Source of the DNA: Candidatus Micrarchaeia archaeon
Lineage (GTDB): Archaea; Micrarchaeota; Micrarchaeia; Anstonellales; J096
Direction of reading: 5' to 3'
Assembly (NCBI GenBank): GCA_041500405.1
Contig: JBGQMB010000008.1
Span: 1-27,548, forward strand
DNA: 27,548 bases
Position numbers: made by a program. Below, piece by piece: positions 1-9,000 of this stretch; position 1 is the first letter of the stretch, and each line of letters begins with the position of its first letter.

Positions 1-3000
1 TATTCCGGCCACTGCCACGACAATGGCTGCTGGCGCGCAGCACGCCGCCCCGCTGCTGCTGAACGGAGTCTCGTCCTTGGACTGGTCGAACTCCGCGACT
101 GCGCCGTTGCCTGATTGCGCGGTCGTGACTTTTTCGCCGGCTTTAAGATTAACTGTGCCGGAGGCGCCGGTTACAGTGACGTTGCCCTTATACACTTTCG
201 TCACGCTCTGTTTGCTAGTGGGATCATAACTCACATAGAACTGCGTGCCCTTGACACCTATTACCGAGACGCCAGTGTCTATCTCAAATTTTGTTCCGTC
301 CCTTTTTGTCACGTCGCTGAAAAGGGCCGCTTTGACAAGCTCAAGCACTACGGCCAGGGTGCCCGCGCTCTTGACCCTGGTGAGCTCTTTCATGCGCAGC
401 ACCGCGCCTCCGTCAAGGAAGAGCTTGCTGCCGTCGTCGAGAACTATTGACGCTTTGCCGCTGTTTCCAACCCTTATTGTGTCGCCCTCGCCAAGCTTGG
501 TGCCTGCGGCCGCCTTTGCCCATGTTACGCCGCCGTCGTTGCTCACAAGCAGCTCGCCGTCGATGCCGCTGACCTGGGCCAGGCCGCCTGTTGACTCTAC
601 GTCATCCATGCTCTTGCTGATGCAAAGCGTATTGTCGTCAGAGCACCCATATGAGCAGCCTGCGCACACGTCGTCGGACGGGGCGAGCTCGTCCTTCAGC
701 AGGCCAAATTCCGAATACGGGCAATAGCAGGCGCATGGCTTGCCTTGCGGGCACGCGCATGCCACATTCAGCCCTGTATCAGGGTCATGGAACCCGGTGC
801 AGGCGTCAGTGCTTGCGCAGGGTATTCCATCCCCGCCGCACAGGAAGCAGTCTGAAGCCCCCGCCGGGCACGTTCCTGCAAAGCACAAAGACGCCATAAC
901 CAGCAAGGTTGCAATCCCAAAAACAGCTTTCATGCCTCCCTTTTCCGCCGTATATTTAAATTTCTTTGCCGTCTGCAATGTGTATGGGCGGCCTTTTGTC
1001 ATATATTTAAAAAGCCTATCCTGCATAAAATGTGTTAAGGTGTTGAAATATGGCAGGACCATGCGAAAAAGCAGCAGAAGTGCTAGTGACTTCATTGTTA
1101 AAGGACATGCCGAATGTGCCCGTAAAATCCTATATGGAGCAGAAGCTCAGCGACAAGTTCGTGGAGCAGTTCAAGTCCATGAAGGACGGTTTCCTCACGG
1201 ACGTCATACCGAAAATAAACGACATCCAGGAGGGCATGAAGAAAATAATGGCCGAAAGGAAAGGCGAAATCAATTATGGCGCGGCGATGCTCATGTATTA
1301 TGCGGCCGCGTGCAACACAGGCAAGGACGACATAGAGAAGTTCCTTGTCGCCTACGGCAAGACCGAGAAGGAGATTCTTGCGAAGCACATCAGCGCCCCG
1401 GCGAACGCGAGGCTGGTGGAGCAGAAAAAATTGTCTGCGATGGAAATAGCGCTTCTTATGCCAGAGGCAGTGTCTGAAACGACCTTCAGGGCCTTCAGCA
1501 CGGAGCTCAGCAGATACAAGTCAGGCAAGATGGCGGAAGGCGAAAGGCCGGACGTGCTGTACAAGAAAACCGGGACAGTAGGGTGAATACCTTTGGTTAC
1601 TGCGCAGCAAGCCCCCGGCAGCGCTACCAAAGAGATTAAAACGCAAAAAGGGGAAACCCTGCGCGCCGCGCTTTCAAAAAAAGCCAGCAAGTACGGCAAA
1701 ATGCTGGACGTAATCCCAAGCATAAGCACGTTCGCTGTCAACAACACCATAAGGATGCACCCTGCGTTCACGTGCAATGCCATGTGCATGTTCCTTGACA
1801 TTGCAATGGGCGAGAAGCAGCCGTTTGTGCCGTACCTTGTTGGGCCGCCGGGCACGGGCAAGACGTTCGCGGCCGAGGGGCTGCTTGACATCACGCTTTC
1901 AAAGCTCAAGGGCGTATTCTCCTCAAAAGAAGGCAACGAGAAGATGCTGAAGGACGCGCTTTCAGGGTGCGTCAGCGCAGGCTTGCTTGAATCGGACTTC
2001 AGCCCTGAAAAGTGCAAAACATTCATCGAATACTTCAAGGTCTCGAACGTGCTTTCTGAAATCGCGTACGGCATGGCAGACACGTATCACTCTTCCCCTA
2101 CGCAGAAGAAGGGCCAGGTGAAAAGCAAGTTCGAGGAGCTCATGATATCGCTCAAGGCAATAGCCAACGCGTCTGGAAAAACAAGGGAAAATTTTGCAAA
2201 GGAGCTGGAAGCCGGCATAAGCACAGACGTCTATGTATTGCCGTCCGCCTCCTCCGCAACCGACATAATCTCTGAAGAGGCCTATGTCATAACCTATTCA
2301 GGAAGCATAGAGCGGATGGTGAAGCACCCGATAATAACGATGCTTAAAGATGCATACAACGGAAAGATAAGCGCGCTTATCATAGACGAGGCAAGCGAAA
2401 CGCTCAAGCAGAAGGAGGCAGGAAGGGTGAAGAACCTGCACCCGCTGATAGATGCACAGGTCAACGGCAAGCCATTGCTTGTTTCAGTGAACCCGGAAAG
2501 CCTGGACGAGGACGGCATAGTGATGCTCAGGGATTTCAAGGACGCGGTTGAAAACAGGATAAAGCAGGGCGGCGCCTGGGCTGAAGACAACATCGACGAC
2601 ATAAAGAGGCTCTCTGCGCAGATTGGCGAGGTCCTTGAAGGCAGGAGGGCCCAGCTTTCAATACTGCTGCCCAACACCTCGTGCATGATGATGACAGGCA
2701 ACGTGAGGCAGGAATACGAGCAGATAGGGCTGACCGGCGCGACATGGAGACGAATCCAGCCGATATCATTCTCATACCTCTCCCCAGAGCACATGGAAAA
2801 ATTCCTTGGCGACCTTGTCGAAGAATACAAGAAGGAGCTCAGGGCGGCGCTGGGCGAGGATTTCAATTCAATAGAAAACGAAATAGGGCAAAGAAGGCAG
2901 GAGTTCGTGAGGAGGCTTGTCGACACATACAAGAGCCTTTACGACGCCTACAACAACGAGCCGGCGAAGTTCGTGAACCGGATGCTGTCCTCGCTGAGGA

Positions 3001-6000: not shown

Positions 6001-9000
6001 CGACTACACGGCAGGCGCGCCCCCGGAAATAGACCTTTTTGCGCCGCTTGCGAAGAATCCGGAATACGCCAAACGGTACAAGGAGAAAGGGGAACAAAAC
6101 ATAAAAGAGCTCCAAGATTTCCTCAATGGCGTCATGGAATCCGTTGACCATGAGCTTGGGATGAAAGCCAGCGGAAAGGCCAAGCTTCTTGAGGTGTTCC
6201 AGGCCATAAACAAAACCATAGAGTCGCACTACAAGAAGGAGGCGCATGGCAAGAACCCCTACATAAAGAGGTTCTACGAGCATTTCGGGGGCGAGACCTA
6301 CAGGTACACCGAAAACCTGCTGGACGACTACAGGATAGACAGGCACTTCTACGACGGAAAAGGAAGGGACGAGATTCTGTACGAGACCAGCGCCGCAGAA
6401 ACAGACAAGCTGAGGCAAATCTACAAGGTGTCCGAATGCATGCTTGCGATGCCGAAGGCGCTGCATATGCATAGGGAGTTCAAGGACGACCCAAAAACGT
6501 CCAATGCCCTGGACACGCTGTTCTATATGAAGATGCTCCGCGGCCGCGCGTTTGACGAGCTCATCGGCCCTAGCGTGGACCCGCTGTTCAGGGACATATG
6601 CGAGATGGCGCTTTCAAAGGCCTACACGGGCGGGAAAACGCCGAGAAGGATAAACGAAACCATGGGCGCAACCATAGAGTTCATGGCGCTTGCCATCATC
6701 TTCGACGATGCCATAAAGCCGCCGAAGGTCAAGATGCAGGAAAAAGGCGAAAAGGGCGAAAAGGGCGAAAAGGGCGAAGGCGAAGGCCAGCAGGGGCAGC
6801 AGGAAGGCGGAAAGGAGGGCCTGCCGAAAAAGGACCTTGACGAAAAAGAGAAGCCCAAGGAAGGCAAGGGCGGCGAAAAGGAAAAAGGCAAGGCCGAGAA
6901 AAAAGAGGAGGAAGGCAAGGATGAAGAGCGCGAAAGCGTGAGCCCGATAGACAAGGATCCGAACAGCGACGTCAAAATCAGCAAGGAGGAGAAGAAAACC
7001 AGCGAAAAAGGCAGGAAGGTCGAAGAGATGGGCTCAAAAGAGGAGAGGACGTACCAGACCATAGACGTTCCTGCTGAAAAAGTGGAGATGTTCAAGCAGT
7101 TTTTCAGGGACCTTAGGATAGACAAGATGGTCATAAACCGCGAGCTGGGGAAAAGGGGCGCAACCGTCGACGTCGACGAGCTGGCGAAGTTCATGTACAA
7201 AAGGGGGGCAAGGGAGGCGACATTCCTCGAGAAGCAGGTCACGGAGATTGACGTCGGGAGCCACCTTGAGGCACGGCCCATAGACATCTACATCGGCGTT
7301 GACACGAGCGGCAGCATGTCAGGGGGCAGGCTGGACCAGGCCAGGAGGATATCGCTTGAGATGCTTGCAGGCTACAGCGAGGTTGCAGGGGAGATGAGGG
7401 CCGCGAACATAAGGCTGCATTTCATAGCAGTTGCGACCGAAGGCGACCATATTGCCATAAGGGACTGGGACGCCACAAAGGGCCTGAGGGTCGAAAGGAA
7501 AGGCGACGTTTGCTCGATTTCCTACAAGTTCAGCGAGATAGGCGGCGGAACCGATCTGCCGGCCATGATAAGCCAGTTCAGGTCGTTTGTCGAGGAGATA
7601 AAGAAAGGCACCATATCCGAGATAGTCAGGGGCAGGAACGCCCTGAACCCTTCAGTGATGATAATGTACCTGACGGATTTCGGGGACAATGCCGGCGACC
7701 TTGAGGGCGTCGTTTCGGCGACAAGGGAGTTCGGCGAGTTCGCAACCCAGTACAGGTCCGACTCAAAGACGGTCAACTACGTCTCCAACGACGCGGGCAT
7801 AGCCACGCTGTTCGTTGTCCCTGACGACCATAGCGACAACGACGAGATAATGAACGCGGTCAAGGGCGCCACAAGCGGGGCAGTGGAGATGTTCACAGGG
7901 GAAAACGAGAAGGACGTTCTTGACAGGCTAAACGCGCTCAGGCCGGTCCTTGAAGGTCTGAGGGCGAGCAACGTGAAGGAAAAGCAGTCCAGATAGGAGC
8001 TATTTCTGTATTCTAAGGAAAAAATCCTTCCGACGGAGCGGAATCTAACCGCAAGATTTATAAATAGTATCATGACATCATCATGATTGTATCGTGGGTT
8101 TGTCAAAGCGAAACCATGACACGGTGTAAAGATGGAACAAAGGGAATTTAAACGTTCGCCCGTTTGGGAGAATGAGATAGAGAAGGAAGCCAAAAACGTG
8201 CTCACAAGGCTCAGAGAAGACCCGGTGCTGCTGGGAGTTCTCATGTCCAAGCTCCTGGAGGAAAGGGAAAACACCAACAGGCTGCTCAAAACCCTGCTTC
8301 AAAGAATAGAGCAGCTGGAATCCAGGGCTACAAAAAACAGTGAGGTACAAGGGACTCGCGAAGCGATGTTGCCGGAGATTGACGAGCGTATTGTGGGATA
8401 CCTAAAGGAAAAGGGAAAGGCGAGCGCGGAGGACGTAAGGATTCAGTTCAATTATAAGGGAACCAATGCGGCCTCCGCGCGGCTGAATAGGCTATATGCC
8501 CTAGGCGTAATAAACAAGGCACAGGCAGGCAAAAGGGTTTATTTCTTTTTGCCGGAATGGCAAGGCGACCAACCCCCCGGTTAGTCCCCGCACTGGTATA
8601 AGCCATATACACCCCAAAAAATCAGCCGAACTCGCTTCCCTTCTCCATTTTCTTTGTTGAAAAATCAGCTTGGCCGGCCTTCCACCAGTTCTTGTCGTAT
8701 CTGTCGAACAGCTGCTCCTCTATCGTCTTTGCGTGGTTTATTGCCTCTGCAACGTGCCTTTTCTCTATCAACGGGCTTCCTTCAGAAACCGCGTTGTCGC
8801 CGGACAGGCGCACTATGCCGGAAAGCTTCCTCAGCCTGAGCGTAAGGGACTTCGGCGCATTGTCAACTGCGTCCGCAATCTTCCTTGCCTCCTTTATCAC
8901 ATCGTCAACCGCATCCTTTTTTGCGTGCGGTATCCTCTTGTCCCTGACAATCTCCTGGGCGACAAACTGCACAAGCTTTGCCCTGTATCCCTCTGTGTCA

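Follow-up and report, generated by a model that had tools for sequence, protein, structure and literature searches.

The closest described systems to the locus analyzed here are NorQ-NorD, which acts in FeB insertion into cNOR (PDB 9qh4-9qhg), and CbbQ-CbbO. In both, an ATPase gene lies upstream of an adaptor gene, the ATPase carries one module and forms a homohexamer, and the adaptor consists of an N-terminal domain, a disordered linker, a finger, and a VWA/MIDAS domain. In CobS-CobT and in phage MoxR/metallopeptidase-vWA pairs (PMC7824862), too, a single chain that accompanies the MoxR ATPase combines an N-terminal domain, a linker, and a VWA domain, and the ATPases are again single-module. 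Midasin and dynein are thought, in the available portions of PMC3495828 and PMC4047620, to have descended from a MoxR ATPase through repeated duplication, and their rings of six modules and about 5000 residues are hard to dissect.

In the window, the 27,548-nt stretch of a Candidatus Micrarchaeia genome that we analyzed, four closely packed forward-strand ORFs span positions 1050 to 7996 and form the cassette g324-g325-g326-g327, and the gene module proposed in a preliminary description was thereby re-found as a real, conserved unit. The ATPase gene g325 (1593 to 4238, +; 881 aa, TTG start) encodes a tandem MoxR-class AAA+ protein with two modules modeled side by side, followed by g326 (4239 to 4601, +; 120 aa) and by g327 (4601 to 7996, +), a NorD/CobT-type adaptor of 1131 aa from a GTG at 4601 or, from the likelier ATG at 4610, of 1128 aa, the length given earlier; its residues are numbered here from the GTG. 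Upstream, g324 (1050 to 1586, +; 178 aa) is a rapidly evolving accessory protein that belongs to no known family, 63% identical to its counterpart in genome G097, with no usable PDB match by sequence and no similarity to the cassette domains in profile comparison. A gene of 167 to 419 aa lies directly upstream of the ATPase at every locus with that flank present, and the position of g326, also an accessory protein of no known family, is occupied by a 102- to 127-aa gene at 9 of 10 assessable loci. The four-gene layout thus applies to this locus and is not universal, as genome G468 lacks g326 and its ATPase stop abuts the VWA start. The cassette had also been called absent from all tables, which is true of g324, g326, and g327, none of which passes a Pfam or NCBIfam cutoff, but not of g325, which passes that for AAA_22. 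JGI annotation names g325 orthologs only Cdc6-like or KaiC/RAD55-like ATPases.

Two P-loop modules were confirmed in g325. The first (1734 to 3332, +; residues 48 to 580), supported by motifs, the secondary structure of the model, and structural matches to NorQ and CbbQ, contains Walker A at residues 84 to 91, a helix-2 insert, a Walker B Asp-Glu at 265-266, sensor I N370, an arginine finger at R387, sensor II R469, and an LHPxxD-type motif that is common to the single-module family described below. The second (3360 to 4223, +; residues 590 to 877), supported by motifs, a McrB structural match, and profile homology, has an atypical, conserved P-loop (GxxQEGK[TS]T), a Walker B [DN]E at 712-713, sensor I N751, and an arginine finger at R763. 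Both arginine fingers, both sensor I asparagines, and both Walker B glutamates are retained in 11 of 11 rows, which is what a working ring requires; the claim that both Walker A/B sets are invariant therefore extends to the module 2 Walker B glutamate but not to its aspartate, which is Asn in 2 of the 11 aligned rows. R469 of module 1 is likewise kept in 11/11 rows, and the module 2 lid has no arginine kept in all orthologs and no clear sensor II, the best column (R787; 7/9 in A6, 3/6 in A11) falling in a poorly aligned region. NorQ and CbbQ share the clade motifs, including the helix-2 insert; g325 differs from them in its two unlike modules per chain, in the unusual P-loop and unclear sensor II of module 2, and in large, lineage-specific insertions in module 1 (about residues 98 to 204, 295 to 357, and 499 to 522).

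AlphaFold prediction from a 9-sequence alignment gave a g325 model (pLDDT 80.0, pTM 0.82) with the MoxR-class core features, namely, helix-2 and pre-sensor I inserts (hairpins in the model), Walker A/B, sensor I, and arginine finger. As previously reported, the model best matches dynein motor domains, which fill all Foldseek rows listed (best E 1.2e-8, TMq 0.27 to 0.39). A single alignment to dynein covers both modules (Z 16.9, rmsd 5.0, 523 aligned), two consecutive dynein modules being matched at rmsd 4.6 to 5.8, and Mdn1/Rea1 also aligns over both (Z 13.2, rmsd 5.8, 456 aligned; Z 10.6, rmsd 5.1, 461 aligned). The stacked ATPases Yta7, NVL, Rix7, and p97 fit both modules only at 14.3 to 17.9 Å, while Pex1/Pex6, ATAD2, and MSMEG_0858 gave 9.2, 9.8, and 10.3 Å, each over fewer residues. 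In the predicted model the two modules have the side-by-side arrangement of dynein and midasin and are not stacked. Taken singly, module 1 (model residues 48 to 579) matches NorQ (Z 11.3, rmsd 3.7, 251 aligned) and CbbQ (Z 11.1, rmsd 3.6, 250 aligned), the best single-module structural matches for g325, a result consistent with the earlier caveat that dynein would come out first for any tandem AAA+ protein in the clade; module 2 (594 to 881) matches McrB (Z 10.7). Identity to dynein is 9 to 14%, two modules plus short insertions make up the 881 aa, the model lacks the linker, stalk, and microtubule-binding domain of dynein, and g325 has a VWA partner, for which the available text of PMC7159879 gives dynein no counterpart.

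The adaptor and its homologs (1105 to 1330 aa) are longer than NorD and CbbO (about 640 aa) and retain an intact HExxH. A modeled all-helical N-terminal extension (4697 to 5620, +; about residues 33 to 340), which has no detectable match in the N-terminal part of the single-module partners (HH probability <1%), precedes the HExxH domain (5633 to 6730, +; about 345 to 710), which matches their equivalent domain at HH 98 to 99% and carries H457-E458-x-x-H461 and a downstream N572-x-x-[DE]-D576. All 12 g327 homologs compared (16 to 70% identity) keep H457, E458, H461, N572, and D576, so that the motif reported as an invariant HExGH stands as HExxH, its glycine being present in only 5 of the 12. 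Going by gluzincin patterns, we take D575 or D576 to be the acidic third ligand, and the domain is putatively zincin-like by motif. Whole-model structure searches were filled by VWA-domain matches, and look-alikes of the HExxH domain in the Atlas came from bacterial and phage clusters without names, in one of which CobT makes up 11%. The linker (6731 to 7045, +; 711 to 815) is disordered (pLDDT <50) and, as had been described, charged; it is mixed-charge (33 D+E and 29 K+R in 108 residues) rather than an acidic tract; homolog linkers have 65 to 155 residues. The C-terminal region (7046 to 7960, +) comprises a pre-VWA strand, helix, and putative pore finger (together 816 to 890; model pLDDT <50 at 842 to 856 and 868 to 888), the finger being placed by alignment, and then the VWA domain, whose MIDAS (D901, S903, S905, T984, D1026) is complete. 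The exact DTSGSM and TDFGD strings, both once given as invariant, occur in 8/12 and 9/12 homologs, with DxSxS in 12/12. With VIA-align, the top match of the VWA domain is the Rea1/MDN1 MIDAS domain (Z 17.1 to 17.8, rmsd 3.1 to 3.2, 202 to 211 aligned, pre-VWA elements covered), ∼3 Z units above NorD (Z 14.8, rmsd 4.7, 211 aligned), whereas Foldseek puts NorD first. Phage CobT-like VWA proteins align to the g327 model over 750 to 980 columns (best E 1.9e-9).

The closest detectable homologs of g325 and g327 are single-module NorQ/NorD-like pairs with HEAT-repeat arrays in other Micrarchaeota families, for which our literature search found no published description, and it is through these pairs that the profile link to NorQ and CbbQ runs. 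The g327 profile finds HExxH proteins at 16 such loci, 13 with a single-module ATPase directly upstream; HExxH and NxxxD are present in 16 of 16 of these partners, whose profile matches NorD at E 1e-53 and CobT at 3e-12. Against the profile of the single-module ATPases (A9), module 1 of g325 scores HH 97.8% globally and 73.7 to 83% locally, and module 2 93.3% locally and 87.5% globally. In the PDB, the single-module structures that this family matches best are NorQ and CbbQ (E 1e-62 to 3e-57), and the family members are AAA_5 proteins, one also CbbQ_C; among g325 orthologs, only that of G468 passes the AAA_5 cutoff directly. These pairs also tend to adjoin alpha-solenoid repeat genes, and differ from the cassette in having one module and no g324 or g326. 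The single-module profile matches midasin at 431 to 445 bits summed over 5 to 6 modules and one NorQ/CbbQ module at 198 to 216 bits, indicating that the NorQ/CbbQ-type and midasin families, told apart here without a tree, are close. Modules 1 and 2 have no detectable similarity to each other (HH probability 1.6%), and the two-module form may have arisen by internal duplication or by fusion of two different genes.

Given these links of both g325 modules to CbbQ/NorQ-type ATPases and of both g327 domains to NorD-type adaptors, we favor reading the cassette as a MoxR-VWA pair in which the motor unit is doubled, an earlier proposal now backed by profile matches of both modules and of g327. By sequence it most likely derives, through remote homology, from the NorQ/NorD chaperone family rather than from midasin. 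The alternative proposal of a two-gene miniature of midasin holds for shape only, in the side-by-side, covalently linked modules and the Rea1-like MIDAS domain; midasin, which strips UBL-domain factors from pre-60S particles, has six modules, MIDAS on the ring chain, and a ∼1700-residue linker (available text of PMC11603028), whereas the cassette has two modules, MIDAS on a separate gene, a short mixed-charge linker with no long helical counterpart, and an HExxH domain. On present evidence, it does not reveal the midasin ancestor. It differs from NorQ-NorD and CbbQ-CbbO in its two additional genes, with nor and cbb client genes absent nearby, and from CobS-CobT and the phage pairs, which share a metallopeptidase-type motif, in lacking CobN or virion context.

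Of 176 genomes in the order, 9 have relatives of g327, as do 5 of 401 genomes sampled in the phylum, a distribution that is patchy, as noted before, even within the family. The carriers are a small set of tiny archaea of symbiotic type. Every full-length g325 ortholog has two modules, and stop codons separate g325 from g327 at all assessable loci. No fused form was found among 14 g327 matches (the longest 1330 aa), and genome searches returned open frames of at most 959 aa (the word-index search covered g325 forms up to 1658 aa). Genomes G137 and G209 carry tandem and single-module systems at separate loci, so the single-module system has not simply been replaced by the tandem one.

We consider it likely that the cassette encodes a NorQ/NorD-type (MoxR AAA+ plus VWA) remodeling machine whose motor gene acquired two modules in one Micrarchaeota lineage, a reading based directly on gene structure, motif conservation, and homology links, with module geometry and VWA fold taken from predicted models. 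By analogy with NorQD/CobST-type machines (PMC13036017; bioRxiv 10.64898/2026.10.09.757910), g325 would form a six-module ring, one g327 would dock its HExxH domain on the ring rim and thread its finger into the pore, the MIDAS would grip a client in a Mg-dependent manner, and ATP turnover would turn the VWA domain relative to an N-terminal domain fixed in place, twisting or pulling the client. More tentatively, the ring would be a trimeric pseudo-hexamer of three chains with alternating sites, module 1 providing a complete catalytic site and module 2 a modified site that is probably slower or regulatory, and g324 and g326 might serve as dedicated chaperones or as accessory subunits. With single-module relatives in the same lineage, a naturally occurring motor of two modules, one site complete and the other modified, makes the effects of concatenation on stoichiometry, site specialization, and step size on the VWA finger testable.

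The chief competing possibility, plausible but clearly less probable, is an ATP-dependent processing protease in which the HExxH domain works as a zinc peptidase on clients that are bound by the MIDAS and fed to it by the motor, for example, to remove the basic leader or common tail of ankyrin proteins. It draws on the invariance of the metallopeptidase-type residues in g327 homologs and single-module partners alike and on the peptidolytic processing proposed for the jumbo-phage MoxR and metallopeptidase-vWA pair (available text of PMC7824862), but the HExxH could be a structural metal site, the NorD/CobT N-terminal domain is described as docked on the ATPase small domain, and a search of the main texts on NorD/CobT did not turn up the word "peptidase." A parallel archaeal version of the transition from MoxR to midasin and dynein would combine these elements in a three-chain, six-module ring with two specialized site types, a MIDAS that grips as in midasin, and an integral zinc peptidase, recognizing an entire family of ankyrin or HEAT proteins by a common terminal handle and then unfolding, cutting, or loading its members for export to a host. 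We regard this as unlikely; if true, symbiotic archaea would have a machine that processes effectors, and it would offer the simplest natural model for division of labor in concatenated AAA+ rings.

It is more doubtful still that g325 and g327 are themselves effectors delivered to a host cell, each encoded behind a small chaperone gene of its own (g324 and g326, respectively), in the manner of the leader-bearing ankyrin proteins. They share with those proteins a basic, low-hydrophobicity N-terminal leader: against a background of 533 soluble non-ankyrin ORFs, called crudely from a single genome, 8/8 full-length g325 rows and 11/12 g327 rows reach the 77th percentile or higher on an ad hoc score (K+R minus hydrophobic share, residues 2 to 36) and fall near the mean of 46 ankyrin ORFs, with g324 and g326 background-like and a small gene before each large one. 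However, disordered N-terminal tails are common, ortholog rows are not independent, single-module adaptors partly show a similar tendency, and no export signal was identified. Very unlikely in our view is a true midasin or dynein relative, an intermediate with two modules that has survived from the formation of the eukaryotic six-module ring, split over g325-g326-g327 and possibly serving ribosome assembly: the geometry, the Rea1/MDN1 match, and a gene order mirroring midasin domain order fit it, but against it stand the restricted distribution, the missing fused form, the HExxH tie to NorD-type adaptors, a g325 identity to dynein and midasin (9 to 14%) equal to that to NorQ, and a ribosomal neighborhood that is not conserved, one locus (L038) bordering ribosomal protein genes. 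A stacked type II (p97/ClpB-like) double-ring hexamer with an adaptor is highly improbable; such ATPases usually carry two modules per chain, and the JGI names would suit it, yet the g325 model fits stacked ATPases at 14 to 18 Å versus about 5 Å for dynein.

For a NorQ/NorD-type remodeling machine, the likeliest clients, tentatively and at clearly less than even odds, would be the expanded ankyrin or HEAT-repeat families of cassette-bearing genomes, a suggestion from gene neighborhood that offers a lead on the use of these large families in Micrarchaeota. No repeat gene adjoins the cassette at 1050 to 7996, 17% of the genome is in any case no farther than 2.5 kb from an ankyrin ORF, and ankyrin matches are few or none (9, 1, and 0) in 3 of 6 cassette-bearing genomes counted. 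An ankyrin or HEAT gene is adjacent at 8 of 12 tandem loci (same strand at 5), and a HEAT-repeat gene is directly adjacent at 12 of 14 assessable single-module loci.

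The four-gene cassette at window positions 1050 to 7996 is a real, rare, and undescribed variant of the MoxR AAA+/VWA remodeling pair and belongs to neither the midasin nor the dynein family. Structural models suggest a dynein-like two-module motor and a midasin-like MIDAS domain; the cassette also has two orphan subunits and may include a peptidase. Its four open reading frames, in a genome of 916 kb on 60 contigs, lie on the same strand and encode g324 (178 aa), the tandem AAA+ ATPase g325 (881 aa), g326 (120 aa), and the adaptor g327 (1,128 or 1,131 aa), with intergenic gaps of 6, 0, and -1 bases (the last becoming 8 with the ATG at 4610 as the start of g327). 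Identity to the orthologs in G097, another genome carrying the cassette, is 63 to 73% for g324 to g327 compared with 83 to 86% for the two genes that follow, indicating that the four genes are real but fast-evolving. The order of small gene, tandem ATPase, small gene, and adaptor is kept at 9 of the 10 loci with a visible middle, with the small genes at the most distant loci equated by position (13 to 22% identity); genome G468 is without the middle small gene and has an upstream gene of 419 aa.

The anatomy in the preliminary description, a tandem AAA+ ATPase and an adaptor with a HExGH motif, linker, and MIDAS domain, was right, and its claims of motif invariance held in part. HExxH and DxSxS occur in 12 of 12 g327 homologs, but the longer words reported as invariant do not (HExGH in 5, DTSGSM in 8, and TDFGD in 9 of the 12), and the second Walker B Asp of g325 is Asn in 2 of 11 aligned rows, some of them near-identical and one partial. 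Family scans of g324, g326, and g327 gave no match above cut-off in Pfam or NCBIfam, nor did the g327 alignment against PHROGs. Profile searches of PDB sequences were uninformative for g326 (best E value, 0.25) and g327 (0.041), and for g325 the best match (0.0025) was limited to the Walker A region. A g324 match to a ribonucleotide reductase small chain (E value, 0.008) was taken as a helical chance match. There was no support (probabilities of ≤3.4%) for g324 or g326 as lid domains split off from the ATPase, as fragments of g327, or as proteins bearing the ankyrin tail described below. A scan for sigma-70-type promoters and terminators, a method unsuited to archaea, returned matches at chance level.

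Full-length matches to g325 and to g327 were found in an identical set of 5 genomes, out of 401 sampled across the phylum, and the whole set falls within one family. Across the order, g327 was present in 9 of 176 genomes (its own, 6 of the 18 others in the family, and both members of a second small family); genomes are 75 to 94% complete, so misses should not be read as absences. Among 1.84 billion representatives there were 14 relatives of g327, the longest of 1,330 aa, and word-index searches with g325 recovered close orthologs and two fragments only. Weak g325 profile matches outside the family (20 genomes) fell in NTPases of other kinds, extended no further than their Walker A region, and were left out of the count. 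Searches of metagenomes with the g325 alignment, together with two viral scans, confirmed no locus, and no RNA data set was listed as a carrier; Atlas clusters of 519 to 634 aa with an AAA_5 domain may be tandem relatives in bacteria or phages. In protein record P0021, a 221-aa partial protein labeled Woesearchaeota, a KaiC/RAD55-like beginning passes into g325-like sequence at the Walker A motif; the record is possibly a chimeric assembly. The g325 ortholog of genome G466 (L116:2-1802) occupies two overlapping frames with a break between modules 1 and 2, reflecting either an assembly error or a frameshift, and is intact in the close relative L106.

A model of g325 built from a 9-sequence alignment (pLDDT, 80; pTM, 0.82) reproduced the dynein match reported previously, with dynein alone among the top Foldseek matches listed. 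In VIA-align, both modules superposed on dynein in one rigid alignment (Z, 16.9; rmsd, 5.0; 523 residues) and on Mdn1 and Rea1 with rmsd of 5.8 and 5.1 over about 460 residues, compared with rmsd of 14 to 18 for the stacked two-ring ATPases Yta7, NVL, Rix7, and p97. The modules are thus predicted to lie side by side within one ring, and we infer from the model that three chains would close it. Sequence identity to midasin and dynein is 10 to 20%. Against single-module chains g325 scored best with NorQ (Z, 11.3) and CbbQ (Z, 11.1), with modules of Lon, Orc, and McrB within 1 Z unit. Module 1 (residues 48 to 580) keeps every catalytic element. In module 2 (residues 590 to 877), the Walker B Glu, sensor I, and Arg finger are retained, but the P-loop, GxxQEGK[TS]T, is conserved in an atypical form and the lid is without an Arg kept throughout; on the basis of these motifs we regard module 2 as a modified site.

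In the adaptor model (pLDDT, 73; pTM, 0.67), a helical extension at the N terminus is followed by the HExxH domain, a linker that is disordered (residues 711 to 815, numbered from the GTG at 4601), and a VWA domain. Foldseek placed NorD at the top (E value, 2.2e-4), whereas VIA-align ranked the MIDAS domains of Rea1 and MDN1 first (Z, 17.1 to 17.8; rmsd, 3.1) and NorD second (Z, 14.8; rmsd, 4.7). This model-based ranking is the sole result favoring a midasin reading. The NorD coordinates are of a motor-bound form whose finger is extended, a state that may depress its score; the finger-bearing VWA type is itself common to NorD, Rea1, ChlD, and VWA8, according to PMC9976466. Among predicted viral structures, the model matched phage CobT-like proteins over 750 to 980 columns (best E value, 1.9e-9); the TM-scores were low, in keeping with domains that are connected by a flexible linker.

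The link to NorQ/NorD runs through pairs that have a single-module ATPase. The g327 profile gave weak matches in 8 other genomes, 6 in the HExxH domain of proteins of 835 to 990 aa and the other two in the low-complexity linker and the MIDAS word. A profile of five such HExxH proteins found members in 21 of 401 genomes at an E value of 1e-5, including the 5 cassette genomes, and a single-module ATPase (∼320 to 420 aa) lay directly upstream at 13 of 16 loci examined (none at 2, with 1 cut by a contig end). These ATPases are AAA_5 proteins whose plasmid-gene matches are annotated mostly as CbbQ/NirQ/NorQ/GpvN; their profile scored 198 to 216 bits with NorQ/CbbQ for one module and 431 to 445 bits with midasin summed over 5 to 6 modules, and their partners matched NorD (E value, 1e-53) and CobT (3e-12). 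In profile comparisons (HH probabilities), the cassette matched this family in the HExxH domain (98 to 99%), finger plus VWA (90 to 92%, and 99% in another comparison), module 1 (97.8% global and 74% local), and module 2 (93% local); a first, four-sequence comparison had given only 25%. At the level of sequence profiles, the cassette is tied to the single-module NorQ/NorD-like family at each part. Modules 1 and 2 did not detect each other (1.6%), so both internal duplication and fusion are possible origins of the tandem. Genomes G137 and G209 carry tandem and single-module systems at separate loci.

According to PMC13036017, the NorQD adaptor attaches through its N-terminal domain to the small domain of a single ATPase subunit and inserts its finger into the pore, and the VWA domain is turned by ATP turnover, which stretches the linker; CobST is described as acting likewise in bioRxiv 10.64898/2026.10.09.757910. 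Because the elements of this cycle are all conserved, the cassette most likely works like NorQD, by analogy running such a cycle in a ring of three chains whose sites alternate. In g327 both HExxH and NxxxD are intact, which leaves room for a possible peptidase step, as proposed for jumbo-phage MoxR and metallopeptidase-vWA pairs in PMC7824862. Among prokaryotic proteins, MoxR is described as the nearest homolog of the dynein and midasin modules in PMC3495828, PMC4047620, and PMC7159879. A literature search that covered listings and the openings of abstracts, plus the papers cited here but not the classic AAA+ and MoxR classifications (Iyer 2004; Snider and Houry 2006), returned no account of the cassette, of the Micrarchaeota pairs, or of any prokaryotic MoxR with two modules; the supplementary architecture tables of PMC7159879 or PMC7824862 could contain such proteins.

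Upstream of the cassette, a divergent gene (window 1 to 1095, minus strand), Cys-rich toward its N terminus and containing a FecR domain, runs past the contig end; its position next to the cassette is not kept in G097. Downstream are a 150-aa reading frame (8132 to 8584), which we take to be a probable winged-helix regulator, and a presumed Lon-like ATPase without a protease domain (8622 to 10109); their synteny with the cassette is seen only in G097, where an ankyrin gene is inserted, and in L105. A five-gene minus-strand operon (12186 to 18242) encodes membrane proteins and a P-loop ATPase (15814 to 17394), presumably VirB4/HerA-like, and a similar operon at L095 adjoins, and is divergent from, a single-module pair. 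The cassette at L106 is preceded, at a distance of 1.4 kb, by an 884-aa reading frame (383 to 3037) that has bacterial-type Sigma70 regions 2 and 4 and ankyrin genes on either side; this frame is unexpected in an archaeon, and the rest of the contig looks Micrarchaeal.

Candidate clients are ankyrin- and HEAT-repeat proteins. In several families of Micrarchaeota, single-module pairs with intact HExxH have HEAT-repeat genes, single or in arrays, as neighbors (L034 to L037, L094 to L104). At 12 of 14 assessable single-module loci, some of them kin and so not independent, a HEAT-repeat gene was the immediate neighbor of the pair or of the adaptor (E value, ≤0.01, with two under Pfam's cut-off), and HEAT matches in two of these genomes clustered at about ten places. 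At the 12 tandem loci, an adjacent ankyrin or HEAT gene was on the same strand at 5, on the opposite strand at 3, and missing at 4, including the window, where ankyrin reading frames lie at 10297 to 11010, 21665 to 22324, 24083 to 24571, and 24572 to 25255. The genome has 59 ankyrin reading frames on 23 contigs, and 17% of it is within 2.5 kb of one. Ankyrin matches numbered 96 in this genome (E value, 1e-3) and 59, 27, 9, 1, and 0 in five other cassette genomes, compared with 5, 2, 1, 1, and 0 in five relatives without the cassette (E value, 1e-8 for both sets). The association is suggestive, not decisive.

A C-terminal F-x3-F-x2-C tail, amphipathic and with the Cys mostly 3 to 4 residues from the end, is found in 33 of the 59 ankyrin reading frames versus 1 of 720 others and is a candidate handle for the machine. 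Most also begin with a basic leader (M[AP]Q in 18 of 46 versus 31 of 720), and to judge from these termini they resemble a set of related proteins that are tagged and may be exported. Some of the ends are similar to CaaX boxes, with varying spacing.
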